64,000 nt of DNA from assembly GCA_000002435.2 (NCBI GenBank), contig CM018793.1, one strand, 5' to 3'. Below the pieces are notes generated by a model. It saw only the letters and a program-made list of their open reading frames with translations. It made no database searches and was not told the origin of the DNA. Positions 7,841 through 45,388 of this stretch are shown piece by piece; the first letter of the stretch is position 1, and every line of letters starts with the position of its first letter. This stretch comes from Giardia intestinalis (taxonomy: Eukaryota). A program made the translations under genes and the position numbers.

Positions 7841-10753
7841 TCACAGTCTTATTCTGTTCTGCAGGTCCGTTAGGAAGTTCACAATCGATGCCTTTACCTC
7901 TTGGGGTATCTCTCCACCAAGAGAGGCGGCGATATCGATGGGGGACTCCCCTCTTACTGTGCAGATGCTATACTCGGCGAAAAAGAGAGCACCAACACAC
8001 GCTATGTGTCCACGCCTGATTGCCTTGATTAGGGCTGTCTCTCCAAGGCGATTAGACATACCTGCCTCGCCCTTCAGGATCTCGACAAGGTCTTGATACC
8101 CCAGTTCGGCTGCATACATAAGAGCAGTGTTTCCGTACTTATCTCGGCACTGCAACTGAATTGGCACTAAGAGTCGTGCTGCAGAACTAGCTCCGTTCAT
8201 AGCAGCGTACATCAGTGCCGTTCTTCCACTTTCATCGACAAGCCTTCCTTGGAGGCTTATAAGAAGATAGCAGGTGACAATGTCATCCTGTGCTGCCGCT
8301 TCCATCATTTCATTGAATCGATAGTTGAGGGTGGAAACGTCCCGTACATCAATACCCTCATATCTCGCCAGCATACGAGCTGCGACCTCATTGTTTGAAT
8401 TAATGGCGATGTAAAGAGCTGAAGTGCCGTCGGGCTTGGTGCACCGGGCCTCTTTCATGGCGAGCAGATTGACGCCTTCATGGTAGCCTGTCCTAACAGC
8501 TATCATGAGCGCTGTTTCACCGTCATTATTCTGCATCCCAGACTCTTGGGAGATAAGGTTGATAATGGCGTCCCTCTGCTTGTTTAGAGTTGCAAGCATG
8601 AGGGCGGTCATTCCGTTAGAGTTAATGCGCCGTATCTCGTGTGCCATTTGTTGTATGACACTCAAGTCTCCTGCGGCTGCTGCTTGCATCAGCAGTGTGT
8701 CATCTTGTGTCTGGCCTTTGTATGTAACTGTTCCCATTGACATACCTATACCGGGCTGTCCGTGTATTGCAGACACGGCGATTGGATTAAGCATCGAAGC
8801 TGTGAGGCTAGCATCCATCCGCCCTCGTGTATTCGTTCGAGGCCTGCTGGTCACGGCTGAGGCAGAAAGTGGTCTAGTTCTCCGGCTTCCAACTTGCACA
8901 TAAGTATCTGTGTTACCTCCAATAGATCGACGATTATTGTTATGAGTAAATGCAGGCTCTTCTTCATCACCGTCAAGATTGACCGAAATGTTGGACATAT
9001 TGGATGCGCTGAAGTTGCTCAAATGGCTCATATTGGTAGGCGGCAAAAATGCTTGTGCTGGATTGATGACTACGCTAGAGATGGGCATAGATAATTTAGA
9101 ACTTCTTGATTCGTGAAGTTGCTGATGAGACGATGCGGCTCCCAGCTCAGCTGTGCGTCCAACCTTCAGCTGAGCAAGCTCTGTGCTTTTTGCTCCAAGG
9201 ACATCATCTTTCAGCTTGATCTCCTCTACGTAAACCGCTACTTGTCCTTCCAGAATGGAGATCTTTGCCTTTAGATTTACCTTGTCTGCCTCAAGCTCTC
9301 TGATCGTGGCGGAAAGCCTCATGCTCTCCTCTGTTTTCTCCTGAATAATGCGAAGATACTCCTGCTCTGCTTCTCGCAATGCATTTACAGTCCCCTGTAA
9401 CTCCTCACATTCCCTTATGCTCTGATAAAGTTGGTTACTGGTTTCTAACGCTTCTCTTTGCATCTCTTTGTATTCCGGAGGGCCAGCTTCCAATATATTC
9501 ATGAATTCTGCCTTCTCTGTGGCAAGCTGGGTCACTGTAGTTGTCAGCGTGTTCAAGCTCTGTTCCTGACTTGCAACGGTACCGGCAAGCTGCTCGTTGC
9601 TCTCCTCCAAGACATGCAGGGATCCTTGCAACGACCTAACCTGAGATTCCAAGCTGTTACACTTTTCCTTCTCCAGGCTATGGATCCTCGCCAAGGCTGA
9701 ATTCGCCCTGGATTGCTCGGCCAATTGTGTGGATATGGTTAAAACTCTTTCGTCACGCAGATGAAGTTGTGCGCGGACGTTTTGGAGAGTAGCCTCAAGC
9801 GACAGGTTATCTGCTTGTAGACTCTCAATTTTTGTCGTTAGCTCCCGTATGATTCTGTCCATGTCTCTTACAGTGCGACCGTCGCCCGATATATACTGCT
9901 CGCGGATTTCTTGCATTTGAGTTTCTGCTTGTACAACGGCACGTTTCGACCGTTCGGACTCGCTTTTCAACAACCTGAGCTCACTATTGAGTGCATCCTG
10001 GATCTTTGTCTTCTCCTCCAGTTCAGCCTTGAATGCCCGCATAGCTGCTCGCGCAGCATCTAGCGGTGTGCCTTCTGATTGTAGGAGAACCCGCTTGATG
10101 TCTTCGCAGTAGCGCTGCTGCTTTCCTAGATCGCGCCTTGCTTCTTCCAATCGCTTCTTGAAATAGTTGCAATCCTTGCATCGAGAGATTGCTTCACGTT
10201 CTAAGCGCACCACTGCGCGGTCAATGAATGTGATGCTTTCTGAAAGACCTGTTTCTCGAAACTTCTCCTCCAAGTGATTAAGTTCTGAAAGATCTAAGGG
10301 AAATTGCCTTAATAAAACGCCAGCAGCATCGATCTGTGAGGAAAGCAACGCACTTTCCAGGGCTGTGTTTCCATTGCAGTCACACTCATTGGGAATCTTT
10401 GGTGCAACAGCTTCAAGTTCGCTTGCTAGTCCCCGCTCTGCAAGAATGTGAAGTATTGTCTTATTGCGGTTTGTCTTGATGTCTCCTTCAAACTGGTAAA
10501 GAAATTCCGCTGCCTCCCAATGGCCATTAATAACAGAGAGCATGTATGCAGTTAATCCATCTGGTGTTAAAATTCCCTTTTCGGTAGCAGCCAGTATGCG
10601 CACTATCCCAACATCGCCAATTTGGGCTGCCAAGTGAAGCCCCGTTAGTCCGTCTGAATTTACCGAACCCTTGTAGATTCCCAAGTCACTCTTAATCTTC
10701 TCGTAATCTCTGGCAAAGATGGCCGCAAACCAAGCGTCAGAGCTCCCCTCCAT
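7841..10753 (-). CDS. Ankyrin-repeat / coiled-coil protein (Protein 21.1-like), 970 aa.
   Basis: There is an N-terminal ANK block, a long coiled coil, an S/T-rich linker and a C-terminal ANK block (TALMYAAMNG, TALIKAIRRGH). Start is ATG. Confidence 0.8.
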   Translation of the reverse strand: MEGSSDAWFAAIFARDYEKIKSDLGIYKGSVNSDGLTGLHLAAQIGDVGIVRILAATEKGILTPDGLTAYMLSVINGHWEAAEFLYQFEGDIKTNRNKTILHILAERGLASELEAVAPKIPNECDCNGNTALESALLSSQIDAAGVLLRQFPLDLSELNHLEEKFRETGLSESITFIDRAVVRLEREAISRCKDCNYFKKRLEEARRDLGKQQRYCEDIKRVLLQSEGTPLDAARAAMRAFKAELEEKTKIQDALNSELRLLKSESERSKRAVVQAETQMQEIREQYISGDGRTVRDMDRIIRELTTKIESLQADNLSLEATLQNVRAQLHLRDERVLTISTQLAEQSRANSALARIHSLEKEKCNSLESQVRSLQGSLHVLEESNEQLAGTVASQEQSLNTLTTTVTQLATEKAEFMNILEAGPPEYKEMQREALETSNQLYQSIRECEELQGTVNALREAEQEYLRIIQEKTEESMRLSATIRELEADKVNLKAKISILEGQVAVYVEEIKLKDDVLGAKSTELAQLKVGRTAELGAASSHQQLHESRSSKLSMPISSVVINPAQAFLPPTNMSHLSNFSASNMSNISVNLDGDEEEPAFTHNNNRRSIGGNTDTYVQVGSRRTRPLSASAVTSRPRTNTRGRMDASLTASMLNPIAVSAIHGQPGIGMSMGTVTYKGQTQDDTLLMQAAAAGDLSVIQQMAHEIRRINSNGMTALMLATLNKQRDAIINLISQESGMQNNDGETALMIAVRTGYHEGVNLLAMKEARCTKPDGTSALYIAINSNNEVAARMLARYEGIDVRDVSTLNYRFNEMMEAAAQDDIVTCYLLISLQGRLVDESGRTALMYAAMNGASSAARLLVPIQLQCRDKYGNTALMYAAELGYQDLVEILKGEAGMSNRLGETALIKAIRRGHIACVGALFFAEYSICTVRGESPIDIAASLGGEIPQEVKASIVNFLTDLQNRIRL

Positions 10754-10940
10754 GAAAGCTATAACGTCTGCAGAACGATTTCCGATTTTTGCCTTTCTAG
10801 TTTACTAGTCCTTTACTGGCTCTTTTGGTTTCAGTCACAGGATAGTTTGTCCTATAGATGTAGATCTTGGTAACAAGATAATTGCATATAAGATCAGTGT
10901 GGACGCGGCACACCTGCACTACTCTCCAGCTGTGGCCGGG

Positions 10941-12197
10941 ATGTTCATCAGCCGGGAGGTTGTGGACGAGTGCTTCCACTGCCTGGACTTGCTGGGAACA
11001 AATAACTACATGACCTCCAGCGACTCAACCGCGTACATCGTCCAGCCGCTCTCGAGCCGCTTCGTCGCGGCCCTGTACAGAGGGACGGTCTACTCCCAGA
11101 CACACAGCATGGATCCGTGCAACCGCTACGCCATGTCCAACGCGGAGGCGCTGGTCTTCATGATGGCCTACGTGACCCATCTCTTCACCCTTCCCCTTAA
11201 CGAGTCCAAACAGGTTGAGTGGGACGTGCTGCGCGGGTGCCCCGTATGCCTCGTCAACGGGGGCTGCCGGTGCGTACGAGTGAGCTGGCCTGCCGTCAGG
11301 AGCCCCGACTCAAAGTCTGCCCCACAGAACTACGTGACCGTTCGGTGCCTGACGTCGGACTTCTTCTGGACATACGAGCAAAGCTCTAGCAGCTATGCTA
11401 GCCTTGAGGAGTACTTCGATAAGCATTACGTGGCCCAGGACCCCATCACAGCCGCAGTGTTTGAAAACGGCAGGCTGGTCAACGCCCACTTCAATCCCAA
11501 GAAGCGCTACGACGCGGTCCTGTTCAGACGAGCGGACAGGGCGGACAGAGAAGACAATAGCACAAACCCCGAGCCCCGGGCGAGCTCGTGTTACCCGGAA
11601 TTCATGCTTCCGTGCCTCTACAACCCGACCACGCGCATCAACTATCCCGGGTACCTATTCAGACAGTGCCTCTTCGACGCAGCGGGCTGCATGATCGGGC
11701 AGTCTGTCGCATCCCGGCTCATCGACATGCTCTTGTATCCGGCAGGGCCCCGGGTGCAGCAGAAGGAGGAAGCCGGCGATGCTTGCACTCCCGCTGCCTT
11801 AGAGTTGTTCAAGAGAGCAGCAGGGTTTGGAGAAGACATGCCACTGCTTATCCTTAACGCCATCAGCACGCTGCACGGTGTGAATCTCCTTAGGACTCTG
11901 CCGCCCTCTCAATTCGACAGCGAGGCAGAGATCGAGGCCCTGGCAGAGCACCAGAGGACGGCATCTTTCAAGGACGCACTGCTGGCAGCAACGCACAGCC
12001 ACAGCGAATACGTCAACGTTATGACGACGTTCTGCGAAGAGAATGTCACGCTGAAGGCGGGAATGAACGACAACGTGTGCAAGATGGAGCACAACATGGG
12101 GTACCTCATCCACGCGCGGTATGAGTCGTCCAACGACCAGGTTCGAGGAACGGTGCTGCGGTTCGCTGGATTTGTAATAGGTTACATGCCCAACTGA
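10941..12197 (+). CDS. Hypothetical protein (GC-rich gene).
   Basis: The 432-aa ORF has non-repetitive composition. The ORF-track start at 10899 is GTG; the first ATG is 10941 (MFISRE). It is convergent with the TatD-like gene, with a short 3' overlap. Confidence 0.45.
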   Translation: MFISREVVDECFHCLDLLGTNNYMTSSDSTAYIVQPLSSRFVAALYRGTVYSQTHSMDPCNRYAMSNAEALVFMMAYVTHLFTLPLNESKQVEWDVLRGCPVCLVNGGCRCVRVSWPAVRSPDSKSAPQNYVTVRCLTSDFFWTYEQSSSSYASLEEYFDKHYVAQDPITAAVFENGRLVNAHFNPKKRYDAVLFRRADRADREDNSTNPEPRASSCYPEFMLPCLYNPTTRINYPGYLFRQCLFDAAGCMIGQSVASRLIDMLLYPAGPRVQQKEEAGDACTPAALELFKRAAGFGEDMPLLILNAISTLHGVNLLRTLPPSQFDSEAEIEALAEHQRTASFKDALLAATHSHSEYVNVMTTFCEENVTLKAGMNDNVCKMEHNMGYLIHARYESSNDQVRGTVLRFAGFVIGYMPN

Positions 12198-33494: not shown

Positions 33495-36400
33495 TCATTC
33501 GGAGGAGGATATATCGCCTGAAAGAATGAGTTTTATGTCAAGAAAATCGTAAGCGTCAGCATATTCAAGAGCTGAGATACCATCATGGTCTCTTATACCC
33601 CTTTCTCTTTCTGCAAGGAGTCTTACGGCATCTATGCTACCATTAGATACCGCATAAATGAGAGCAGTCCAACCAAAGCTATCTTTTATACCGCCTTCCA
33701 GGTCTAACAATAATTCCACACACTTGGGATAGTTATTAAATGCTGCACCCATAAGAGCAGTTCTACCGCTACCACTTCTCATGCCGCCCTCATATTTTAC
33801 TAATAATTTTACTAATTCCGTGTATCCGTATGCTGCAGCAATCATCAATGCTGTTCCTTCATATATTTCCCATCCATCTAATTCTACACATCCTGTGTTT
33901 CTTCTTGCCTGAAAAGGAAGTAGAAGCTCTACGCCTTCTATGTCACCCTTTTCCGCTGCCCTCATAAGGGCTGTGACACCTTCCCCATTAGTAGGAGCTT
34001 CATGAGGCATAATAATCTTGGCAGCCTTTAGATGTTCATTCTTGAGCGCATAATACAAAGCATTGCGATCCTGTTTGCTTTTCATCTCTTTCTCATGTTT
34101 AAGGATGATTCTTATGGCATTAATTGAGTTATTTTCAGCGGCATGCATAAGCGCTGTCATGCCGCTTCTATCTTGCATGCGTGCTTCCTTTTTTAGTAAT
34201 AACCTAATGCATTCCCCATTGTTGTTAGTCGCTGCACACATCAGAGCCGTCCAACCATCATCGTCTTGCATGCCCTTCTCTTTCTCCAATAATACTTCGA
34301 CACATTGAGGATGATTATTTTCTGCTGCACTCATTAGAGCAGTTCGTCCACAATTATCTTCCATGCATCCTTCTTTTTTCACCAGTAGCCTGACTATTTC
34401 AACATGCCCATATGCGGCTGCATACATAAGAGCTGTTTTCCCACCGATATCCTGACGGCCCACTTCATGAAGACTGTCTCTAACATCATCTATGTTATTA
34501 CAAATTGCAGCATAGATGAGAGTAGTCCAGCCAGAAGCATCGCTTTCATGTTGCACTAAGAGTTGTGCGCATTCCTGTTCATTACAAGATGCCGCCCACA
34601 TGAGAGCAGTCATATCACTATTATCTTTTATGCACTTTTCCATCATTAGTAAGAGCTTGACGCACTCTGGATTACCATTGTATGCTGCCCACATAAGAGC
34701 GGATCCGCCGTCGTTATCCTGCATGTTGCCTTCCTTTTTCAGTAGTTGTTTGATGCACTCAGGACAATTCTTCTGTGCTGCGATCATAAGAGCGGTCTCG
34801 CCACTGTTAGTTTGCATGCGGCCCTCCTTTTTTAGTAGGAGCTTAACACACTCTAGACTGTTATTGCACGCCGCATTCATAAGAGCAGTTCGACCATCAC
34901 TGCTTTTCATGCCACCCTCTTTTTCAAATAATAGTCTAGCACACTCTAAATTGTTATTAGATGCTGCAGCCATGAGACCAGTTCTGCCAGACTTATCGTA
35001 CATGCAACCTTCCCTTTCCAAAAGCAGCCGAACGCATCCTGCGTGACCCTTTTCTGCTGCCATTATGAGAGCAGTTTCGCCGTTGTTAGTTTGCATACCG
35101 CTTTCTTCTTCTAAGAGCAACCTTGTACACTCTAAATGGTTATTGCGCGCTGCACACATAAGAGCGGTCCATCCGTCATTGTCTTGCATGCATCGTTCTT
35201 TTTCTAGTAAAAGCATAGCGCATTCTAGCTTGTTGTTACAAACTGCGTGCATAAGAGCGGACCACCCGTCTTTATCCTGCATACCGCCTTCATGGTCCAG
35301 TAATATGTCGACGCAGTCTACACTATTGTTGAATACTGCTATCATAAGGGCACTCCGACCATTCTTATTTTGCATCTCAGCCTCCTTCTTTACTAATAAT
35401 GCAGCACACTCTATGCTGTTGCTATATGCTGCATACATGAGAGCGGTCCAGCCACTACTCTGTGTCATTCCGGCTTCTTCGTGTAACAGAATCTTAACGC
35501 ACTCAAGGTTGTTCCCTTGTGCTGCTCTCATGAGAGCTGTTTTACCGCACTCATCTTTCATACGACACTCGTGTTCTACTAACAGCTTTACCATTCCTGT
35601 GTGGCCATGCGCTGCTGCCCTCATCAATGCTGTGCCCTTAGTCATCCTCAATCCATCTGTTTCAGCCTCCCCTGCTGTTCTCTTTCTCTTCTGAAGAGGT
35701 ATAAGCGCCTTCACAGTATCTACGTCATTTCTGTCAACAGCCCTCATGAGTGCCGTGACGCCTTTGTCATCAGTAGGGTCTAAAAGCTCCACAATACCTT
35801 CGTGCCCCGCCCTCGCGGCTATGATTAGCGCAGTCTCGTCGTTGTTGTTCCTCTTGTCTTTGTCCGAGAGGTGTTCCTTGACCGCCTCGATGTCTCCGTC
35901 CGCAGCGGCGCACATGAGCGGGGTCCAGGAGAAATGTAGTATGGATCTAGGGAGGCTTGACAATGCTGTGATATTCACCAGCCCATGTGTTGATGTAGGA
36001 GGTGCAGGGACCTGTGCACACGAGTTCTGGGGGCTCTTGAAGGTCCTCGTAAACTGTTGTTCGAGGTCCCTAGCTTCGGTCCGAAGATTCTGCTCAAAAG
36101 AGGCTATTCTGGCGTTTGCCTTGTCCAGAGCATTCTCCAGCATCATAATCCATGGATTCCTCTTGGTAGCAGAAGCGTCGGATGCCTGGAGTAGATCACA
36201 GAGCTCTTTGGCTGTTGGCCTTTCTCCTGGATCCAGAACGAAGATTTTTTCGAGGATGCACTTCATAACACTATTCGTGATATCACCTAAGTCCGGTCTC
36301 CATCCAGAGATGAAGGTACTCTTTGGGTCGCCAGTTCTTGTGAAATTGGGTCTCTTCAGGGTGGCAAGCTCGTAGATGATCACTCCGAGTGCCCAGATAT

Positions 36401-37025
36401 CGGAGGCAGAGGTGATGTGGTTACGAAGAAGAGTCTCAGGGGCTGTATACGGTCTTGCTCCGACAAAAGCGTTTCCAGATCGCAGAACGTCCTTGCAGGG
36501 GCCAAAGCATGTGATGACGACGCGCTTCTTGTCTTCGCTGATAAGGATGCTGGCAGGCCTGAGGTCCCGGTGCACGATTCCACAGACGGTGCTTCCATTG
36601 GAATTTGTCATCTGGATGCCATGGAGATAGGCGAGGGCATCGGCGACCTGCTGCATGACAGAGAAGATCATTTCGTCGGAAACGTAAACATCCATCCGTT
36701 TGTGCTCAGTGATGAACCTATCAAGAGAACTGCTGTAGCGGTCCATGGTCACGTAGACAAGGCACCCGTCCTCAATGACCTGGTGGCATCTGAGGACCCC
36801 CGGATGCGAGAGTCTAAGGAGAGCAGCCAGCTCAGACTTGAAAATGCTGACGATACCCTCGTCTTGGTCGTCAATCTGGATCTCTTTTATAGCAAAATTA
36901 GGGTAGTCTTTAATAGAGTAAACAGCGCTGGAGGATCCCCTGCCAAGCAGGACATCTATGCACTTGTAAGCCTCGTTGGCTAGGAGCTTTGGTGCAGCGG
37001 AGCCCTCCACGGCAGAAGCGGACAT
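33495..37025 (-). CDS. NEK-family protein kinase with a long C-terminal ankyrin-repeat array.
   Basis: The kinase subdomains are present: GRGSSSAVY, AIKEI (Lys), HRDLRPASIL, YTAPE and DIWALGVIIYEL. The DFG motif is replaced by CFG. More than 20 ANK units follow. The ORF-track start at 37145 is GTG; the first ATG is MSASAVEGS at about 37025. Confidence 0.85.
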   Translation of the reverse strand: MSASAVEGSAAPKLLANEAYKCIDVLLGRGSSSAVYSIKDYPNFAIKEIQIDDQDEGIVSIFKSELAALLRLSHPGVLRCHQVIEDGCLVYVTMDRYSSSLDRFITEHKRMDVYVSDEMIFSVMQQVADALAYLHGIQMTNSNGSTVCGIVHRDLRPASILISEDKKRVVITCFGPCKDVLRSGNAFVGARPYTAPETLLRNHITSASDIWALGVIIYELATLKRPNFTRTGDPKSTFISGWRPDLGDITNSVMKCILEKIFVLDPGERPTAKELCDLLQASDASATKRNPWIMMLENALDKANARIASFEQNLRTEARDLEQQFTRTFKSPQNSCAQVPAPPTSTHGLVNITALSSLPRSILHFSWTPLMCAAADGDIEAVKEHLSDKDKRNNNDETALIIAARAGHEGIVELLDPTDDKGVTALMRAVDRNDVDTVKALIPLQKRKRTAGEAETDGLRMTKGTALMRAAAHGHTGMVKLLVEHECRMKDECGKTALMRAAQGNNLECVKILLHEEAGMTQSSGWTALMYAAYSNSIECAALLVKKEAEMQNKNGRSALMIAVFNNSVDCVDILLDHEGGMQDKDGWSALMHAVCNNKLECAMLLLEKERCMQDNDGWTALMCAARNNHLECTRLLLEEESGMQTNNGETALIMAAEKGHAGCVRLLLEREGCMYDKSGRTGLMAAASNNNLECARLLFEKEGGMKSSDGRTALMNAACNNSLECVKLLLKKEGRMQTNSGETALMIAAQKNCPECIKQLLKKEGNMQDNDGGSALMWAAYNGNPECVKLLLMMEKCIKDNSDMTALMWAASCNEQECAQLLVQHESDASGWTTLIYAAICNNIDDVRDSLHEVGRQDIGGKTALMYAAAYGHVEIVRLLVKKEGCMEDNCGRTALMSAAENNHPQCVEVLLEKEKGMQDDDGWTALMCAATNNNGECIRLLLKKEARMQDRSGMTALMHAAENNSINAIRIILKHEKEMKSKQDRNALYYALKNEHLKAAKIIMPHEAPTNGEGVTALMRAAEKGDIEGVELLLPFQARRNTGCVELDGWEIYEGTALMIAAAYGYTELVKLLVKYEGGMRSGSGRTALMGAAFNNYPKCVELLLDLEGGIKDSFGWTALIYAVSNGSIDAVRLLAERERGIRDHDGISALEYADAYDFLDIKLILSGDISSSE

Positions 37026-37165
37026 CCGATCGTCCTCGCTAACAATAGTGGTTTTTGGCCAATCCACGGCGACTGGATTGGATGGACGATCAGGAGCTGG
37101 GTTGAGGACCGCCCCACGGCACAGAAGCAGCGGGCGGATGCCCACTGAGTACTATTCATTGGCGC

Positions 37166-37184: not shown

Positions 37185-40100
37185 CTACGCTTTGCCTCTG
37201 CATAGGAACCACCAACACAAGAAGCCAACAAGACCACCTACAATAACTATCACAGCCACGGCGATGCCTGCAATGGCGCCGGTAGAAAGGCCACTCTTAT
37301 TGACGCTTCCGCCGTTGTCAGTGCCATCCGTCTTGACGTAGCAGATGACAGAGCCACCATCGCCGCCAGCTGGAGGAGCACAGCTTACGCAATCTTTAAC
37401 TCCAGTGATAGGCTTATTACCGTTAGGATCGTTTGTGTCGCATCTTACACATTTGGTTCCAACCTGATAATATCCTACAACGCAAGATGAACATGTGTTT
37501 GCATCGTTTGCACTAGTGCACGTTTTGCAAGCGGAATCACACAAAGGGCATACTCCAGCCGCACTAGGCTGAAGACTATTGGCGCACGTCTCGCACTTGT
37601 CGCCCTGACTGGCTAGCGTGCATATCTGTATGCCAGGTTGTCTGTCAGTCTTATAGCAGCCGTTGTCCTGGCGGAAGTACCCACTGGCACACGTAGTGCA
37701 CCCTCCCTTGCCATCTTTCACCTTGCACGCAGCTGCGCGGGCATTGTCTGCTGTACAGACCCCGTTGACGGGGACCTCCGTGGATGTGCTGCACTTCGAG
37801 CAATACTTTGTCCCTCCGATGGTGGCTCCGCAGGTCTCGCATCCGCTAGCTCCACTCTGGGGCTTGCACCCGTCCACGCAAGTACCGCTTGATGGACTGT
37901 TCTCATCCGTGTATTTGAGCATCTTCCCAGCAGGACAGGCCGTACACTTATCAGCACCCTCACCCTTACACTCTGCGCACGCATCGTTGCACCTCTTGCA
38001 TGTCTTTTTGCCACTATCGTCTCCGTAGTAGCCCTTGAGGGTCGTGCAGTCAGATACGCACTGACTAGTTGGGGTGAGGTAATCGCCGTCATTACATTCA
38101 GTGCAGGCCTCGTTCTCGGCCTTCGGGTTTGTGCAGTCCCTGCAGTTGGGCGTGTTGCACTTCCTCTCGACGCACTGGCTCCCGCTCAGAACGTAGGCGG
38201 GGTCGCAGCCAGTGCAGGCCTCGTTCTCGGCCTTCGGGTTTGTGCAGTCCCTGCAGTTGGGCGTGTTGCACTTCCTCTCGACGCACTGGCTCCCGCTCAG
38301 AACGTAGGCGGGGTCGCAGCCAGTGCAGGCCTCGTTCTCGGCCTTCGGGTTTGTGCAGTCCCTGCAGTTGGGCGTGTTGCACTTCCTCTCGACGCACTGG
38401 CTCCCGCTCAGAACGTAGGCGGGGTCGCAGCCAGTGCAGGCCTCGTTCTCGGCCTTCGGGTTTGTGCAGTCCCTGCAGTTGGGCGTGTTGCACTTCCTCT
38501 CGACGCACTGGCTCCCGCTCAGAACGTAGGCGGGGTCGCAGCCAGTGCAGGCCTCGTTCTCGGCCTTCGGGTTTGTGCAGTCCCTGCAGTTGGGCGTGTT
38601 GCACTTCCTCTCGACGCACTGGCTCCCGCTCAGAACGTAGGCGGGGTCGCAGCCAGTGCAGGCCTCGTTCTCGGCCTTCGGGTTTGTGCAGTCCCTGCAG
38701 TTGGGCGTGTTGCACTTCCTCTCGACGCACTGGCTCCCGCTCAGAACGTAGGCGGGGTCGCAGCCAGTGCAGGCCTCGTTCTCGGCCTTCGGGTTTGTGC
38801 AGTCCCTGCAGTTGGGCGTGTTGCACTTCCTCTCGACGCACTGGCTCCCGCTCAGAACGTAGGCGGGGTCGCAGCCAGTGCAGGCCTCGTTCTCGGCCTT
38901 CGGGTTTGTGCAGTCCCTGCAGTTGGGCGTGTTGCACTTCCTCTCGACGCACTGGCTCCCGCTCAGAACGTAGGCGGGGTCGCAGCCAGTGCAGGCCTCG
39001 TTCTCGGCCTTCGGGTTTGTGCAGTCCCTGCAGTTGGGCGTGTTGCACTTCCTCTCGACGCACTGGCTCCCGCTCAGAACGTAGGCGGGGTCGCAGCCAG
39101 TGCAGGCCTCGTTCTCGGCCTTCGGGTTTGTGCAGTCCCTGCAGTTGGGCGTGTTGCACTTCCTCTCGACGCACTGGCTCCCGCTCAGAACGTAGGCGGG
39201 GTCGCAGCCAGTGCAGGCCTCGTTCTCGGCCTTCGGGTTTGTGCAGTCCCTGCAGTTGGGCGTGTTGCACTTCCTCTCGACGCACTGGCTCCCGCTCAGA
39301 ACGTAGGCGGGGTCGCAGCCAGTGCAGGCCTCGTTCTCGGCCTTCGGGTTTGTGCAGTCCCTGCAGTTGGGCGTGTTGCACTTCCTCTCGACGCACTGGC
39401 TCCCGCTCAGAACGTAGGCGGGGTCGCAGCCAGTGCAGGCCTCGTTCTCGGCCTTCGGGTTTGTGCAGTCCCTGCAGTTGGGCGTGTTGCACTTCCTCTC
39501 GACGCACTGGCTCCCGCTCAGAACGTAGGCGGGGTCGCAGCCAGTGCAGGCCTCGTTCTCGGCCTTCGGGTTTGTGCAGTCCCTGCAGTTGGGCGTGTTG
39601 CACTTCCTCTCGACGCACTGGCTCCCGCTCAGAACGTAGGCGGGGTCGCAGCCAGTGCAGGCCTCGTTCTCGGCCTTCGGGTTTGTGCAGTCCCTGCAGT
39701 TGGGCGTGTTGCACTTCCTCTCGACGCACTGGCTCCCGCTCAGAACGTAGGCGGGGTCGCAGCCAGTGCAGGCCTCGTTCTCGGCCTTCGGGTTTGTGCA
39801 GTCCCTGCAGTTGGGCGTGTTGCACTTCCTCTCGACGCACTGGCTCCCGCTCAGAACGTAGGCGGGGTCGCAGCCAGTGCAGGCCTCGTTCTCGGCCTTC
39901 GGGTTTGTGCAGTCCCTGCAGTTGGGCGTGTTGCACTTCCTCTCGACGCACTGGCTCCCGCTCAGAACGTAGGCGGGGTCGCAGCCAGTGCAGGCCTCGT
40001 TCTCGGCCTTCGGGTTTGTGCAGTCCCTGCAGTTGGGCGTGTTGCACTTCCTCTCGACGCACTGGCTCCCGCTCAGAACGTAGGCGGGGTCGCAGCCAGT

Positions 40101-40451
40101 GCAGGCCTCGTTCTCGGCCTTCGGGTTTGTGCAGTCCCTGCAGTTGGGCGTGTTGCACTTCCTCTCGACGCACTGGCTCCCGCTCAGAACGTAGGCGGGG
40201 TCGCAGCCAGTGCAGGCCTCGTTCTCGGCCTTCGGGTTTGTGCAGTCCCTGCAGTTGGGCGTGTTGCACTTCCTCTCGACGCACTGGCTCCCGCTCAGAA
40301 CGTAGGCGGGGTCGCAGCCAGTGCAGGCCTCGTTCTCGGCCTTCGGGTTTGTGCAGTCCCTGCAGTTGGGCGTGTTGCACTTTTCGCTGCCGTTCTGCCC
40401 GCTGCGCTTTGCCAGCACTGTTACACAAACTAGGAGAAATCCTACCAACAT
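37185..40451 (-). CDS. vsp: Variant-specific surface protein (VSP) with about 20 tandem 37-aa Cys-rich repeats.
   Basis: The N-terminal MLVGFLLVCVTVLA is a signal peptide. There are dozens of CXXC motifs. The C-terminal TM helix is followed by the invariant tail CRGKA-stop, and the VSP poly(A) signal lies downstream. Confidence 0.9.
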   Translation of the reverse strand: MLVGFLLVCVTVLAKRSGQNGSEKCNTPNCRDCTNPKAENEACTGCDPAYVLSGSQCVERKCNTPNCRDCTNPKAENEACTGCDPAYVLSGSQCVERKCNTPNCRDCTNPKAENEACTGCDPAYVLSGSQCVERKCNTPNCRDCTNPKAENEACTGCDPAYVLSGSQCVERKCNTPNCRDCTNPKAENEACTGCDPAYVLSGSQCVERKCNTPNCRDCTNPKAENEACTGCDPAYVLSGSQCVERKCNTPNCRDCTNPKAENEACTGCDPAYVLSGSQCVERKCNTPNCRDCTNPKAENEACTGCDPAYVLSGSQCVERKCNTPNCRDCTNPKAENEACTGCDPAYVLSGSQCVERKCNTPNCRDCTNPKAENEACTGCDPAYVLSGSQCVERKCNTPNCRDCTNPKAENEACTGCDPAYVLSGSQCVERKCNTPNCRDCTNPKAENEACTGCDPAYVLSGSQCVERKCNTPNCRDCTNPKAENEACTGCDPAYVLSGSQCVERKCNTPNCRDCTNPKAENEACTGCDPAYVLSGSQCVERKCNTPNCRDCTNPKAENEACTGCDPAYVLSGSQCVERKCNTPNCRDCTNPKAENEACTGCDPAYVLSGSQCVERKCNTPNCRDCTNPKAENEACTGCDPAYVLSGSQCVERKCNTPNCRDCTNPKAENEACTGCDPAYVLSGSQCVERKCNTPNCRDCTNPKAENEACTGCDPAYVLSGSQCVERKCNTPNCRDCTNPKAENEACTGCDPAYVLSGSQCVERKCNTPNCRDCTNPKAENEACTECNDGDYLTPTSQCVSDCTTLKGYYGDDSGKKTCKRCNDACAECKGEGADKCTACPAGKMLKYTDENSPSSGTCVDGCKPQSGASGCETCGATIGGTKYCSKCSTSTEVPVNGVCTADNARAAACKVKDGKGGCTTCASGYFRQDNGCYKTDRQPGIQICTLASQGDKCETCANSLQPSAAGVCPLCDSACKTCTSANDANTCSSCVVGYYQVGTKCVRCDTNDPNGNKPITGVKDCVSCAPPAGGDGGSVICYVKTDGTDNGGSVNKSGLSTGAIAGIAVAVIVIVGGLVGFLCWWFLCRGKA
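38100..40380 (-). repeat. Perfect tandem array of a 111-bp unit, about 20.5 copies, coding (unit KCNTPNCRDCTNPKAENEACTGCDPAYVLSGSQCVER).
   Basis: The period was measured directly (e.g. tcgttctcgg at 38110 and again at 38221). All copies appear nucleotide-identical. The period is divisible by 3, so all six frames stay open. Confidence 0.9.
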
Positions 40452-40829
40452 TAGCCGGGTTCGTATGCCACTGCTCTTCTGTCAGGCTGATGTGTTGCTG
40501 CGAGCAGTGAGAGACAGTCACTTTTGCTCCCTTAACCAGTTGGACCGGAGAAGGACAAGATAGGAGCACACCCACCGGAGGCCAACTGATAGTGCGGTTC
40601 CCCCTGGCTTCCATAGGAACAGGACCAGTAAGGACCAGACTCAGATCGCACCTCTCTTGTGGAGTGATTGTTCAGGGTGCACTCCTGTACATTGCTGTCA
40701 CTGTATCACTGGGCCCACCTGCAGGTGCGCTCAGAGGCCCCACGGGCAAGCCGCGCCCACTTCCCAACCACCGCGGAGGGTGTCCTGGGAGACGCTAGTA
40801 ACAGTGCAGTTAGCAGCTTTGCAGGGCCG

Positions 40830-41852
40830 ATGGGCGTTTGGGGAGCGTGCTCAGCAGGGGCCCTCAGCGTTATCTACTCTCTCAGGGGATGCCCCTACCT
40901 CGTCGTGAGAGAGATCCGGCTTGATGGCCTGGATCAGCACAGTGTAGATGCCATTCGGCGCAGGCTGACCGCTCTTCTAGGCACCCTTCACCCAGACGTT
41001 CTCAAATACCACCAGGTACTTACAGACGGCAACACGATCCTTGTTGTTACAGACCGCTGCTGTGGAGACCTCCGGCAGTTCATCACCGACTACAGGGACA
41101 TTCACGAACCTATTCCCAGCAAGCTGATGCTCTCCCTTCTGGGGCAGCTGGCTGGCGCCCTTGCCCACCTCCACGGGTTCAGCAGAGGTGCCCACAGCGG
41201 CCTGCCCTCTAGCGTTGTCCTCGAGCCCGACAACGTCCTGTTCGCTGGGGACGGGCGGCGTGTTGTTCTTGCAGACTTCGGGTTCTGCGAGGGCATATCG
41301 AGCGGAGCTGCGAAGGCTGGCGACCCCGCGTACATGGCCCCCGAGACACTCCTCTGCGGTGACATGACCCAAGCATCCGACGTCTGGAGCCTCGGGGCCA
41401 TCGCATACGAGCTCGCCACCCTGAGGAAGCCGGACTTCCTAGGGGACAGGGATCCTGCAGAGGTCTTCGTCGATGGGTGGAGGCCGGACCTGAGCGGTAT
41501 CGCAGACGACCTCGCAAGGAGCGTCCTTGAAAGAATGCTCGTCCTCGATCCCGCCGAGAGGCCGACTGCCAGAGAGCTCGCCCGTCTGCTTCAGATGGCC
41601 AGTGATTCTACTGATGAACAGGAGGCCCAAGACACAAGGCTAAAGGAGGTGCGCGCAGCCTTTGTAGAAGTCTTGAACGCTCATCTGCATTCGCTATTGC
41701 CTTGGGGGAACCACAAGGTCCTTATCTGTCAGAACTGGACGATATCCGACCTTCTGATTTCAGATTCTGGGTCTCAGCTGGTAAACGAGCGAGAGACTGC
41801 CGGCCTGGGGCGGCGGCGGCTCGCGTGGAGGACCTGTTCAGACAACAGCTGA
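40830..41852 (+). pseudogene. NEK-like kinase domain paralog with catalytic residues lost (pseudokinase or decaying gene).
   Basis: It is about 45-50% identical to the NEK kinase domain at 33495-37025 (YMAPETLL, DVWSLGAIAYELATL, GWRPDL, LVLDPAERPTARELARLLQ). The VAIK Lys is replaced by Arg (VVREI), and HRD is replaced by VLEPDNV; DFG is retained. The ORF-track start at 40668 is TTG; the first ATG is 40830 (MGVWGAC). Confidence 0.5.
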
Positions 41853-42068
41853 CAAACCAACCAGAGGAAGCAGAACGAATTCTTTTGTTCACAGCTTGCC
41901 TGACGCCACGGCCGAAGGTCACCCCACTGCGTCTTGTTACACACGTAGGGGCGACGGAAGGAATCCAAGGCGTGCAGTCCGCTTATGATGCGCTATCTGG
42001 ATGCGCTGCAAGAGGCCCAGGAATTGCAGGCGTGCTGCCACACGGGCTCTATGTGACCCGGAGTAAAA

Positions 42069-42971
42069 ATGTTGTCTATGGATGACTTAGATCAATTCCT
42101 TCAGGAGTGCGACTGCGCCTTACTCCTCATGTCTGAGAAGGACGCAAGTGAAGAGGGCGCAGGAAACCCAACTGAGTCTTCACAAACAGATGATGAAGGC
42201 AGCGTGGACGAGGACGGCGTCACCACACTTATGGAGGCAGCTAAGAGGAACGACGTGAAGGCGGTGAAGCGCTACATCCCTTATCAGGCAAGGATGGTGG
42301 CGAGGTTTGTTACGGCGGGGAGAGTAGAGATATACGATGGGACGGCCCTGATGGTCGCTGCGGTGCTTGGACACACCAGAGTGGTGAAGCTGCTGATGAG
42401 GTGCGAGGGCGGCATGAGGAGCAGTAATGAATGGACAGCCCTCATGTGGGCGGCACTTTTTGGCCGCACCGAGGTCGTGAGACTGCTCCTGGATGTTGAG
42501 GGAGGCATGCAGAAAAACAGAGGTTTCACTGCCCTCGTGCTTGCAGCAGAATGTGATCATCTGGACTGTGTCAAGTTGCTACTGGAGAAGGAGAGGGACA
42601 TAAGTGGCGTACTTGCCATCCATATGGCTAATAGATGGAATCACTCCGAGGTAGCATCTTTTCTCCAAAGTAAGGGTATTGTAGATCCATACTTACAGAT
42701 GCAGCCCAGGAAGCTTGTGAGTGAACTCGCCTACTTGCTGATCATATCACAATGTTTACCCTGTTTCACTGAGATTAGTTTGCTAGCTGCTGTCCAAGTA
42801 AATCCCCCATGCGAGTCACCGCCCTGGGCAAGCGGGTACCTCCCGCCCCTGCATCGGTTGAGATCCAGAATCCGAAATCTGAGATCGGATGTAGCGATTC
42901 CGGTGGGAGAAGAAGAAGGAACTTTGCTCTGCCTCTCGGGAGTCCCTGCCGCTCCTCGCGGTGCCCCCTAG
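42069..42971 (+). CDS. Short ankyrin-repeat ORF (300 aa), probably the detached ankyrin part of the decayed NEK paralog.
   Basis: It is in the same frame as the kinase-like ORF but separated by stops. The ANK units (VTTLMEAAKRNDVKAVKRYIPYQ, GTALMVAAVLGHTRVVKLLM, WTALMWAALFGRTEVVRLLL) parallel the first repeats of the NEK at 33495. The C-terminal 100 aa look non-coding. Confidence 0.45.
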   Translation: MLSMDDLDQFLQECDCALLLMSEKDASEEGAGNPTESSQTDDEGSVDEDGVTTLMEAAKRNDVKAVKRYIPYQARMVARFVTAGRVEIYDGTALMVAAVLGHTRVVKLLMRCEGGMRSSNEWTALMWAALFGRTEVVRLLLDVEGGMQKNRGFTALVLAAECDHLDCVKLLLEKERDISGVLAIHMANRWNHSEVASFLQSKGIVDPYLQMQPRKLVSELAYLLIISQCLPCFTEISLLAAVQVNPPCESPPWASGYLPPLHRLRSRIRNLRSDVAIPVGEEEGTLLCLSGVPAAPRGAP

Positions 42972-44506
42972 GACTCCCCCTTCCTTTGGCTAGCTTGGGT
43001 CAGCTCCGTCTGACATTTATTGAGCACCTGCTGTCTCGGGTCTTGCGTCAGTCGCGGCGATCTGGTCTCCACGTGGCCCGGGGCCCTGGTGTTCCGTGAC
43101 GAAGATCGCGCCCCACGACCCCGGGTGTCTACCCCGTTTCTTGGGGTGCCTCTTCGTCTTCTCATGAAGCGATCATCTGTCCCGAGCATGATCGGAGGGT
43201 GCGCTCCTTGTATGCCTCTATCTTGGGGTTGTGGTACGCATTCGTGGATGCCAGCGGAGTACTCCCATGCGTTGTGTCGGGGGAGAAGTATGGCCCTCTG
43301 CTCATGGATCACAGTGCACTCTTGTGGGTGGTCCGTCATCCAGTACGAGACCGCGTCGACGCTCACCCTGTGCAGTGTGTCTGGCTCAGTGACGTGTGGG
43401 CTGGTCCATCTGCACTGCACAGCACACCTGGGGGAATGATTCGGTCTGTCGAGGCATCAGTCCAGGGCCACCTCTCTGAGAGGCGTCGTCCGAAGCATCA
43501 GAAGCGATCAGGACCGGTTCACCGCTTGGTCGTCTCTCTACAACCGGCGCCTGTCCACTCAAGGATGTCAGGCACTGCCAGTTGCTGCAGCAGACACCCG
43601 GCAGGTGGCCCAGGTCACCACTCTTCGGTACGGTCAGGATCAATCCGCCTCTGTTAGCCAAGCACCCCAGGAGCCCCATCTCTTGTCGAGGGACTCACAC
43701 GGGTCACGTGTGGGTCCATCTCGACAAGCGGGGCGAGTGATTGGTGCCATCACTGGCTTGGGCCCTCCGTTGCCCTGGGAGCTCCTTGAGACCGGCCAGG
43801 AAGGAGGCCCCCTGCCCCTCAGTGCTCCTACACTTGTCAATGTTGACTGTCAAACCATATCGTTTCGCTAGGGCTGCCACCTCTGTGGCTATCCCCGTCG
43901 CGTCATTGTTGCTACTATGGAAGATGGGTGTGTCGTCGGCATGGGCAGTGAGTGGAGTATCTCCTTCAGCTCCTGGTGAGCAGGTTCTGTCCCCCGCAGC
44001 ACAGAAGCATGCTCAGGGCCCCGAGGGACCGAGTCCAGGGGTGCAGCGTGTTACAGCCGGAGGAAGGCCTCGACGCAACTCCTCGGACGAGGCACACTCG
44101 CCTGGCAGAGGCCGTCTACTGTTAGGGTGCTCGTTATGTCGAGCGAGGCCACCGTGGCCATCAGTCTGCATCTCCCTGCGCCATGCGAACACCACCATGT
44201 GCAGTCAGTAGAACGCAGTCTGCTCGATCTCGAGGAAGGCTAGTGTCTGGGTCTCCAGGGGACTCGGGACTACCTTGTGGAGCGCATCATGATCGTCCAC
44301 CGATTGCACTTGCCCTGCCTCGTCCTTGGGAAGAGGGAAGAACAAGAGTTCTTCTCCCGCCGGAGTCGCTTGACACTCACCTTCGAACTCTGGATCTGGA
44401 TCTCGGTTGGTGAACGAGCGAGGGACTTGCCCAGAGAGGCGATGACTCGCATGGGAAGATCACTCAGGTAACAGCACTGATAACAAAGTAAATTATCACG
44501 CCAGAG

Positions 44507-44794
44507 ATGCAATTGATTCGCCTAGTTCAAAAGCTTCAGGGGCAGCGTGTGCGGTTCGAGTTGAAAGCTGGCGGAATGATTGAGGGAACTGTCGCCCTGG
44601 TTGATGCGACCTTTGTTGTGCACCTTTCTCAAGCGTCCTACACTCCGCGGGGCGCAACGACCGCTATCTGTCATCCATTCGTCGTGCTACGTGGAGCAGC
44701 TATCTGTAGCCTCTCTCTTCCGGGCACGTTTGACACGGACACGCACCTTTGCGCCTTACGGACAGAGTACAATCGGGGTCCAAAAAATAGATGA
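44507..44794 (+). CDS. SmD1: Sm core protein SmD1 (snRNP).
   Basis: The ORF reads MQLIRLVQKL...VRFELKAGGMIEGTVALVDATFVVHL (Sm1) and ...FVVLRGAAICSLSLPGTFDTDTHL (Sm2). It aligns along its length with SmD1 (MKLVRFLMKL...IELKNG..V.GTI.GVD..MN.HL...LSIRGNNIRYFILPDSL). Start is ATG, with an AT-rich initiator upstream. Confidence 0.75.
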   Translation: MQLIRLVQKLQGQRVRFELKAGGMIEGTVALVDATFVVHLSQASYTPRGATTAICHPFVVLRGAAICSLSLPGTFDTDTHLCALRTEYNRGPKNR

Positions 44795-45159
44795 GCCAGG
44801 CCCGTTACGTCGGAATATTCCGGTGCAACAAGTGCAGTACTCCACTCTTTCTCGAAGAACATGTGCAACAACATGAGTCTGTCGCTAAGGTTGCGTTCCG
44901 GCGGCAACAGGTGCCCGAGGCCCGGTGCTCGTCGTATTTCCTTCCGAAGCTCCGGTGGATGGGGGACCTCCTGGGGAATCAGGGCAACCTCGCATGCCCC
45001 CAGTGCGCCCAGCGGGTGGGAGGCTGGTGCTGGAGCGGACGGGCATGCACGTGCGGCGGGCTCGTCGTCCCATACATCGCCGTCCACCGCAACAAGGTCG
45101 ACCGCGTCATGACAGAGGTCTCCGCCGGGGACGCACCTACTGCCGCAGGAGCCCCATGA
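44791..45159 (+). CDS. Yippee/Mis18-like zinc-binding protein.
   Basis: It has two CXXC pairs 53 aa apart (FRCNKCSTPLF ... CPQCAQRVGGW), matching the Yippee pattern (F.C..C.T.L ... C..C...LGW). Its ATG overlaps the SmD1 stop as ATGA. The gene is GC-rich. Confidence 0.5.
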   Translation: MSQARYVGIFRCNKCSTPLFLEEHVQQHESVAKVAFRRQQVPEARCSSYFLPKLRWMGDLLGNQGNLACPQCAQRVGGWCWSGRACTCGGLVVPYIAVHRNKVDRVMTEVSAGDAPTAAGAP

Positions 45160-45388
45160 CGTGACGTAACATAGCCTGCTGTGCATCCAACAGCAAACGG
45201 TCCAGCCTGCCTGTTGGAGTTTCTGGACCCGAGTCTTTTAGAAGCAATCCATTGAAAGTGAAAAGTGAACATGTGACTTTCAGTTGCCTCATCTATGCAA
45301 CAAGTAGATCATTAAAGCGCCAATGGGTGGTGGCTCACACAGCGTCCAACTTGATGCATCTGTGCAGGCAAGGCAACCCTTTAAAGAT

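Follow-up and report, generated by a model that had tools for sequence, protein, structure and literature searches.

A Nek-GL4 pseudokinase gene and a stand-alone ankyrin gene of different ancestry, probably joined by recombination in a VSP-associated region of Giardia intestinalis

In a 64,000-nucleotide stretch of chromosome 5 of Giardia intestinalis WB (hereafter the window), an open frame with kinase similarity (40668-41852) shares its frame (coordinates mod 3 = 0) with the ankyrin open reading frame that follows it (42069-42971). A first-pass annotation of this DNA saw here a Nek paralog in decay or fission, either one frameshifted pseudogene or two newly independent small genes. Our analysis indicates that these are very probably two separate transcription units of different ancestry that were joined by recombination in a variable island associated with VSP genes. 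The kinase part belongs to the Nek-GL4 subfamily and lacks catalytic residues that its whole clade has lost, the ankyrin part belongs to a family of small ankyrin-only proteins, and similarity to the one gives way to similarity to the other at a sharp breakpoint at 41677.

The locus and its two genes

VSP, Nek and TALM-ankyrin genes were recognized in the window with Pfam. The translations of the two ORFs match exactly the proteins KAE8306129.1/XP_001708477.1 (kinase) and KAE8306130.1/XP_001708476.1 (ankyrin) on a 4.02-Mb contig, and annotations from 2007 onward list them as two genes. Divergent from the kinase gene is a VSP gene on the minus strand (37185..40451; Pfam VSP E = 1e-92, CRGKA tail), in which a 111-bp (37-aa) unit is repeated perfectly 20.6 times at 38099-40382 (Tandem Repeats Finder, period 111, 100% matches). 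A dispersed repeat of about 130 bp is present in three copies that are 68-85% alike, at 41735..41860 (+), 42790-42915 (-) and 44349-44480 (+). Between the ankyrin ORF and an LSm gene (44507) lies a GC-rich stretch without a recognisable gene (42972..44400); it is 95-98% identical in other isolates (L016 and L017), and part of it is repeated 3' of the end of a VSP gene in isolate DH (77% identical to L002, 3218-3868). Since ankyrin-then-kinase pairs occur elsewhere, a decayed kinase was sought 3' of the ankyrin gene at 42972-44500; tblastn found nothing credible there, and the ORFs of this flank had no Pfam match. The L016 sequence is colinear with the window only down to 42764, where it passes into a helicase gene, and short-read (Logan) contigs obtained with the LCAT and WD40 genes of the flank end near 44400 or diverge at 42764; no positional ortholog of the locus was recovered from related isolates. 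A literature search by accessions gave no match, and the sole text match for 137676 was a partial repeat elsewhere.

The kinase gene, GL50803_137676, runs from an annotated ATG at 40830 to 41852 on the plus strand and encodes 340 aa (an exact match to P0001). The first-pass annotation had begun it at 40668; the frame is indeed open from there, but 40668 is a TTG and no start codon. The ORF matches Pfam Pkinase (E = 5.6e-21), its best solved-structure matches are NEK2, NEK7 and NEK1, and both fold and clustering place it in the Giardia Nek subfamily GL4. In the alignment to human NEK2, its VVREI corresponds to a change of Lys72 to Arg and its HRD is replaced by …PSSVVLEPDNV, with loss of Asp166, while DFG and APE are kept; the Lys72, Asp166, Asp184 set of an active kinase (PKA numbering) is incomplete, and no catalysis would be expected of the product. 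These losses had been taken as a sign of decay. The residues are absent, but the full-length paralogs carry the same Lys and HRD substitutions, and the loss is a trait of the clade and not decay of this copy.

Those paralogs are proteins of 486-586 aa with a kinase domain, a coiled coil and 3-8 ankyrin repeats. The module that GL50803_137676 has in common with them, at 40762..41677 (+; blastn and tblastn), is 90-91% identical in DNA to L002 and L003 over exactly 40762-41677, and in protein 82-88% identical to P0002 (GK145) and P0003-P0005, this similarity ending at 41678. For GK145, a WB paralog, protein similarity extends upstream to ~40668 (Manning 2011, Table S1). The one-ORF kinase-ankyrin architecture is not found at this locus, where the kinase ORF stops before the ankyrin ORF, and for this gene (GK143) Table S1 lists no ankyrin repeats or coils and Manning's table gives low SAGE tag counts. 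A 4-bp difference from L002 and L003 near 40843 might be read as a 5' frameshift; we rejected this reading because GK148, another WB paralog, has the same N-terminus and GK145 the same ATG. Pairwise dN/dS is ~0.4, and the lineage-specific changes (10 synonymous, 18 non-synonymous) are too few to call relaxation. The kinase remnant would be at best a kinase-only pseudokinase scaffold and is possibly a relic; decay applies to it in the limited sense of a Nek copy without the coiled coil and ankyrin tail of its closest paralogs.

The ankyrin ORF, annotated 'Ankyrin repeat protein 1', has Ank_2 (E = 3.3e-51) as its sole Pfam domain and is by content an ARP-1/Protein 21.1 protein. The 3-4 repeats noted earlier are four TALM-type repeats plus a cap (repeat starts TALM, TTLM and TALV). 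Their supposed match to the first repeats of the intact 1216-aa Nek neighbour proved generic (43-44%), the best match being to its last repeats (1049-1208). The family-conserved part of the gene is 42069..42731 (+; KAE8306130.1, XP_001708476.1), as defined by homologs and Pfam: about 35 homologs of 211-252 aa from assemblages A and E, 60-89% identical, cover residues 1-221 and have a common start Met. Protein identity to stand-alone genes of 221-252 aa is 83-89%, and DNA identity is 92.6% to L014 and 88% to L001; the ankyrin parts of P0002-P0005 are 34-42% identical. The dN/dS is 0.31-0.45. An A-rich sequence lies directly before the ATG, and the gene may be expressed from its own putative promoter.

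Besides the start Met and the four repeats with their cap, the small clade (about 221 aa) is marked by an acidic stretch at the N-terminus, and it normally ends at codon 221, after …VSE(R/H/L)A. L014 and L001 have TAA at the stop position; the window, L024 and L015 (an isolate P15 member) have TAC or TAT there instead. Because it is TAC in the window, the ORF reads through for 79 extra codons into flanking DNA (42732..42971, +) and reaches 300 aa instead of ~221. The tail sequence (AYLLIISQ…) matches, within the family, only other read-through members, in agreement with its earlier description as a junk-like tail. Just 5' of the usual family stop, a pattern scan found AGTGAAC (42720..42726, +), a candidate poly(A) signal that fits the Giardia consensus AGTRAAY, of which the window holds 30 occurrences against 30.1 expected, no excess over chance. 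At least seven other window genes have the motif at their stop or no more than 47 nt beyond it, and it is absent between 41852 and 42720. The ankyrin mRNA probably ends near codon 221.

The junction and the bridge

Similarity to the kinase paralogs reaches 41677, and similarity to a sequence of isolate DH (L024) starts at 41669, which places the recombination junction between kinase module and ankyrin cassette at 41669..41677. DNA similarity to L002 and L003 stops abruptly at 41677, with no indel there. Across the junction the two parental sequences share 7 of 9 bases (AGCCTYGRA), these parents being proxies from isolate DH and an ENA assembly and not DNA of the WB paralogs GK145, GK148 and P0057. 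Past 41677, similarity to the paralogs is absent in every frame before 42087 and is then only 34-42%.

The bridge from this point to the ankyrin ORF (41678..42068, +) is non-coding elsewhere; its counterpart in L024, 86-97% identical, is the intergenic DNA that precedes the ARP-1 gene. The kinase ORF takes its final 58 codons and its stop from this bridge (tail NAHLHSLLPWGNHK…RTCSDNS), which also holds three more in-frame stops and most of an open stretch in the +2 frame. In the kinase-tail region there are indels of 1, 7 and 3 bp relative to L024. The first-pass statement that a kinase-like and an ankyrin ORF stand in one frame with stops between them is borne out, with in-frame stops at 41850, 41901, 41946 and 42054; the shared frame carries little weight, because it is a 1-in-3 coincidence. 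The +2 ORF said to bridge the gap is likewise open (41702-42085), but as coding sequence it does not hold, since it contains no ATG and lies mostly in cassette flank. It is locally unremarkable; in the ORF-poor flank at 42972-44500, five stretches run for 127 codons or more without a stop. In none of its frames does 41678-42068 credibly resemble the linker of the kinase-ankyrin paralogs, 124 family proteins compared with 41660-42100 at E up to 10 gave noise-level matches only, and the bridge has no Pfam match and no Rfam match at E up to 0.1. Giardia introns are marked by a GTATGT 5' splice site and a CTRAC…AG 3' motif. Both are absent from 41500-42200, and an intron joining the two ORFs was rejected.

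The cassette itself is found apart from any kinase. L024 matches 41669-42950 at 90%, whole bridge included. Its cassette comprises a 390-bp 5' flank and one small ankyrin gene (ARP-1) that stands alone, with no kinase upstream. Stand-alone family members are found in assemblages A1, A2 and E; in L014 and L015 (assemblage E isolate P15) the gene is at a syntenic site beside a deoxynucleoside kinase gene, and in L001, L014 and L015 an ankyrin gene followed by a kinase-only Nek is a recurring pair. The first-pass annotation had set beforehand, as an observation against its own reading, that both ORFs might be independently conserved and expressed in related isolates; the ankyrin ORF is so conserved, through its gene family and a second cassette copy in DH. 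Fission at the window locus is not its origin, since the same cassette and 5' flank occur in DH without an upstream kinase. The reading as two small genes is nearly right, but they are not newly independent, the ankyrin family being older and stand-alone. The small ankyrin proteins and the linker-ankyrin halves of the GL4 Neks may nevertheless have a very old common origin, because their overall layout and 34-42% identity are common to both.

A proposed history and its alternatives

The parental Nek would have been a GL4 pseudokinase with a coiled coil and 3-8 ankyrin repeats, of the 486-586 aa type. Recombination would have cut a copy of it at 41677, keeping the whole kinase domain and ~25 linker residues. 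An unrelated cassette would have become attached there by its 5' flank, whereby the Nek copy acquired 58 codons of non-coding DNA and a chance stop. The cassette, extending from 41669 to ~42950 or beyond, would have brought with it a stand-alone small TALM-ankyrin gene with its own start Met; TAC at the family stop of the window copy gives the 79-codon read-through ORF. The join would have been a microhomology-assisted recombination. Because the junction parents are proxies and not WB paralog DNA, we only infer the direction of the event, in which either a full Nek was truncated or a cassette landed beside a Nek.

It is very unlikely that we are looking at a single Nek disabled in place by small indels, with the +2 ORF as its shifted linker and the ankyrin ORF as its own tail. 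Such a gene would have the observed common strand, common frame and kinase-then-ankyrin order, as in intact Neks, and the DH paralog L002 is truly split, a protein of the 487-aa type being divided between ORFs of 334 and 108 aa. In the window, however, identity to the same paralogs falls from 88% in the kinase to 34-42% in the ankyrin part, the breakpoint is abrupt, no frame of 41678-42068 resembles any linker, the bridge is the usual 5' flanking DNA of a cassette that stands alone, without an upstream kinase, and the +2 ORF has no ATG. Similarity to one parent does not continue across the frame changes, and the different ancestries, the sharp breakpoint at 41677 and the lack of linker homology argue against the frameshifted pseudogene of the first-pass annotation. 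A chimeric join of two repeat copies during assembly is likewise very unlikely: both modules are repeated elsewhere in the genome and the Logan short-read contigs all break near 44400, but the translation of the kinase ORF, which spans the junction and includes the tail, is the same in Manning's 2011 table (from a 2007-era assembly) and in the 2020 GenBank entry (a long-read assembly, beside which the RefSeq accession still stands at version.1). Because of this identity, the junction is no sequencing error.

A functional partnership of two genes, or an evolutionary intermediate that represents either fresh loss of the ankyrin part or a step toward fusion, seems to us distinctly unlikely; on this view Giardia Neks would acquire or shed ankyrin arrays through the placement of a kinase module beside an ARP-1 cassette. 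Deletion of the 216 nt that hold the four stops would join the ORFs in frame, and the small ankyrin proteins are laid out like the C-terminal half of the GL4 Neks; Manning et al. called ankyrin repeats 'evolutionarily mobile' among related Neks and suggested that Neks and Protein 21.1 'may form a single family'. Pairs of an ankyrin gene and a kinase-only Nek do recur in L001, L014 and L015, but they run ankyrin then kinase, opposite to the order in the window; the common frame has a 1-in-3 chance, and direction cannot be read from one locus. Our preferred reading remains recombination between separate units of different ancestry. Unlikely, too, is the further reading that the locus is a datable example, resolved to the base at its breakpoints, of ankyrin arrays being shuffled on and off Neks by short-homology recombination between mobile ARP-1 cassettes and Nek-GL4 genes in VSP islands, with the dispersed 130-bp repeat (41735, 42790, 44349) as a possible substrate; if it were true, a single deletion would turn the same-frame ORFs, 216 nt apart, into a new fused Nek.

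Comparison with known Nek and ankyrin proteins

Much of this setting was known. Both genes are annotated, and Manning et al. (2011, Genome Biol 12:R66, PMC3218828) include GK143/GL50803_137676 in their Nek alignment and catalogue it in Table S1 as 'Nek-GL4, Dead Nek - missing K72, D166'. Rapid gain, loss and fragmentation of Nek and ankyrin genes at VSP-rich synteny breaks is also familiar: Nek-GL4 shows rapid turnover, 29 pseudogenes and fragmentary gene models (PMC3218828), and VSPs, Neks and ARPs are over-represented at synteny breaks (PMC7000408; PMC3091692). What is added here is the breakpoint at 41677 and the possibility of refining two gene models, in which the 58 terminal codons of the kinase ORF and the 79 of the ankyrin ORF probably belong to no real protein. 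The significance outside annotation is slight, beyond one clean example of domain shuffling for the Nek and ARP families.

As a listed member of Nek-GL4, 82-88% identical to GK145 (P0002) and P0003-P0005, the window kinase differs from these closest paralogs in having neither coiled coil nor ankyrin repeats and in ending in 58 flank-derived codons; Manning 2011 gives it no pseudogene flag. Its best structure match is human NEK2 (PDB 2jav, 2w5a; E = 7e-18), with which it shares DFG, APE and a NEK2-like loop before the catalytic loop, whereas it has Arg in place of NEK2 Lys37, lacks HRD and has a degenerate glycine-rich loop (…CSAGALSV…). The ankyrin protein agrees with the definition of ARP-1 (ankyrin-only, formerly Protein 21.1; Xu et al. 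2020, Sci Data 7:38, PMC7000408) in being ankyrin-only and TALM-type, and it probably falls in a tight clade (211-252 aa) with a common N-terminus and a mostly common end, from which its 79 additional, non-conserved residues set it apart. The nearest parallel to the locus as a whole is the split Nek of isolate DH (DHA2_153964 and a 108-aa ankyrin ORF, L002), where a kinase ORF and, behind it on the same strand, a short ankyrin ORF likewise lie beside a VSP gene. The DH pieces, however, match consecutive parts of one 487-aa paralog type, and that locus looks like a true in-place disruption, whereas the two pieces in the window differ in ancestry.

Two annotated genes in a GC-rich island

The flagged region lies within a GC-rich island (57–64% G+C vs about 47% in the surroundings). 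Its kinase ORF (ATG at 40830 to 41852, plus strand) is an exact match to KAE8306129.1/XP_001708477.1 ("Kinase, NEK", 340 aa), and its ankyrin ORF (42069–42971, plus strand) to KAE8306130.1/XP_001708476.1 ("Ankyrin repeat protein 1", 300 aa), both of WB clone C6; the accession numbers are consecutive, so no gene is annotated between the two. The first-pass annotation had placed the open frame 40668–41852 and the ORF 42069–42971 in one frame separated by stops, and this is correct, with in-frame stops at 41850, 41901, 41946 and 42054. The frame is indeed open from 40668, but that position is a TTG and not the start codon, which is annotated at 40830.

To the left lies a minus-strand VSP gene (37185–40451; 1088-aa ORF, CRGKA end, Giardia VSP family match E = 1e-92), in which 38099–40382 holds 20.6 tandem copies of a 111-bp unit (37 aa, CxxC-rich) at 100% identity with zero indels; such perfection implies that the array expanded very recently or is still being homogenised. 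Beyond it, the 1216-aa Nek at 33495–37145 (minus) keeps its Lys and HRD, but its DFG position reads CFG (…VVITCFGPC…), so that by the three-residue rule this neighbor is probably catalytically dead too. To the right, a 95-aa LSm-domain ORF (44507–44794, plus) and a paired-CxxC ORF of 122 aa (44791–45159, plus) share 4 nt (ATGA), and the opposite-strand 171-aa ORF called here in several assemblies (44671–45186) is probably spurious.

The junction and the bridge

It had been proposed that a single NEK gene is caught here in frameshifted decay, or in fission into two newly independent small genes. The single-gene reading is wrong, since the kinase and ankyrin parts differ in ancestry, the junction between them is abrupt, and the bridge (41678–42068) is intergenic DNA elsewhere. 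The kinase ORF is 82–88% identical to P0002, P0004 and P0005, paralogs of 486–586 aa with a kinase domain, a coiled coil and 3–8 ankyrin repeats, solely up to position 41678; the ankyrin ORF is just 34–42% identical to the ankyrin parts of these same proteins. At the DNA level, 40762–41677 matches two paralogous loci, L002 (isolate DH) and L003 (ENA assembly), at 90–91%, and both are unalignable with the window beyond …GTAGAAGYCTTGAA. From the other side, the DH locus L024 is 90% identical over 41669–42950, the equivalent of its contig end, a match that takes in the ankyrin ORF with most of its tail as well as the complete bridge. The L024 sequence is intergenic over the 390 bp 5' of the ankyrin ATG, and no kinase-like sequence was seen upstream of the ankyrin cassette. 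Window and L024 differ by indels of 1, 7 and 3 bp within the part read as the tail of the kinase ORF, so the reading frame of this tail is not conserved; the last 58 residues of the ORF are almost certainly adventitious. At the join (41669–41677) the two proxy parents have 7 of 9 bases in common (AGCCTYGRA), which is compatible with short-homology recombination.

The bridge itself, compared in all frames with 124 family proteins, gave no resemblance above noise; no intron motifs were found in the junction/bridge region, nor any Rfam match in the bridge. The +2 frame ORF that was thought to span the gap is a genuine stop-free stretch (41702–42085), but it lacks any ATG codon and matches nothing in Pfam, and it is uninformative because the gene-poor flank at 42972–44500 alone contains five stop-free stretches as long or longer. 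As for an assembly or indel error, the printed sequence of this kinase (GK143) in Manning et al. (PMC3218828), upstream extension and tail …RTCSDNS included, equals the window translation exactly. Since the ORF spans the junction, the latter is present in both the 2007-era assembly and the 2020 long-read one, which argues against such an error. We consider it highly probable that a truncated, dead Nek-GL4 abuts an independent ARP-1 cassette, and that the open frames of the bridge and of both ORF tails are chance readings of non-coding flank.

The kinase ORF

The best solved-structure match of the kinase ORF is human NEK2 (E = 7e-18); in this alignment DFG and APE are kept, and the reported losses of the catalytic Lys (Lys to Arg in VVREI) and of HRD are both evident. 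These losses had been taken as decay of a single copy. However, the full-length paralogs P0002 and P0004 have the same dead site (LAVREI or LTVREI, plus VVLEPDN), and among the compared paralogs only P0003 keeps the Lys; on these alignments the dead site is a trait of the clade rather than decay of the window copy. In Table S1 of Manning et al. (PMC3218828), GL50803_137676 (GK143) is classed as "Other/Nek/Nek-GL4" with complex orthology and annotated "Dead Nek - missing K72, D166", with zero coils, zero ankyrin repeats, no pseudogene flag and expression tags of SAGE R 1.7 and a maximum tag share of 5.4 (percent x 1000). Every kinase pair has a dN/dS of about 0.4, and the window-specific changes (10 synonymous, 18 non-synonymous) are too few to judge. 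The 340-aa product may be either a working pseudokinase without further domains or a relic. A 4-bp difference from L002 and L003 near 40843 was considered as a 5' frameshift and dropped, as in Manning's alignment the WB paralog GK148 has the same N-terminus (MGVWGACSAG…) and GK145 starts at the same ATG.

Three other Neks (P0003, P0008 and P0009), whose identity to the window kinase is otherwise about 50%, share an N-terminal peptide, (M)LVTVQLAALQGRWA, at 87–93% conservation. The window encodes it at 40792–40839 in frame +1, a different frame from that of the kinase, and these genes may carry a conserved DNA element at their 5' ends that accounts for this.

The ankyrin cassette and its flank

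The ankyrin ORF has about 35 homologs of 211–252 aa (60–89% identity) in WB, DH, P15 (assemblage E) and other isolates, which align to its residues 1–221, share its start Met and mostly end right after …VSE(R/H)A. Pairwise dN/dS in this family is 0.31–0.45, and in loci L014 and L015 (P15, assemblage E) a small ARP-1 gene occupies one shared syntenic position next to a deoxynucleoside kinase gene. Judged by these comparisons, the ORF is an independent, older gene. The similarity noted earlier to the 1216-aa Nek's first repeats is of a generic kind (43–44% identity), the best match being that protein's last repeats. In L001, L014 and L015 the ankyrin gene precedes a kinase-only Nek, the reverse of the window order. 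This two-gene unit recurs (L001 3908–6036, L014 10001–12157, L015 10001–11914) as ARP-1, a gap of about 110–300 bp, and a Nek without ankyrin repeats, 386–396 aa where complete.

Immediately 5' of the ankyrin ATG is A-rich sequence, GAGTAAAAATG, in agreement with typical Giardia initiator regions. The Giardia poly(A) signal consensus is AGTRAAY, and AGTGAAC occurs at 42720–42726, six bases 5' of the family's stop position (42732); at least seven other window genes also have AGTRAAY at their stop or within 47 nt after it. A pattern scan found none between the kinase stop and this putative signal, consistent with loss of the kinase gene's own 3' end. The codon at the family's stop position is TAA in L014 and L001, against TAC or TAT in L024, L015 and the window, so the window ORF extends 79 codons further, across a dispersed repeat of about 130 bp in inverted orientation and into DNA that is plain flank in another isolate. 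If, as is probable, the mature transcript terminates near codon 221, this tail would not be real protein. Most of the tail, previously read as a gene dissolving into junk, falls inside the 90% L024 match. Between the WB and DH cassettes (41834–42971 vs L024 5775–6889) the flanks are better conserved than the coding sequence (97% upstream, 95% tail, 89% CDS), and the closest relative along the CDS in 60-bp bins alternates among L024, L014 and L001, a mosaic that suggests gene conversion among paralogs.

Colinearity of the window with locus L016 (ENA k141_115515; 95% identity) extends from 51081 to 42764 and breaks there, some 30 bp downstream of the family stop position; beyond the break L016 runs (8242–10991) into a superfamily-1 helicase-like gene, not ankyrin, Nek or VSP genes. 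The repeat copies, 68–85% alike, lie at 41735–41860 (plus), 42790–42915 (minus) and 44349–44480 (plus); they bracket the cassette and the gene-poor flank, one directly upstream of the LSm gene, and a related piece lies in DH (L002 3887–4064) downstream of a VSP gene 3' end. The flank (42972–44400) is about 1.4 kb of GC-rich DNA without a recognizable gene in an otherwise compact genome, and both strands contain many long stretches without stops. Conservation in two other isolates is 95–98%, and 43633–44333 is 77% identical to DH DNA (L002) downstream of a VSP gene 3' end.

It is plausible, on the basis of this one locus, that the junction exemplifies the gain and loss of ankyrin arrays by Neks through cassette recombination. 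WB has 198 Neks, 71% of them without catalytic residues; between related Neks the ankyrin repeats are described as "evolutionarily mobile", and a single family may unite Neks with Protein 21.1 (Manning et al., PMC3218828). Ankyrin-only proteins have been renamed ARP-1, cysteine-rich protein families (VSPs included), Neks and ARPs are enriched where synteny breaks occur, and VSP surroundings tend to be gene-poor (Xu et al., PMC7000408); the same association of synteny breaks was seen by Jerlström-Hultqvist et al. (PMC3091692). Thus, the locus is an ordinary instance of the published Nek/ARP/VSP pattern, at its annotated place in the reference genome.
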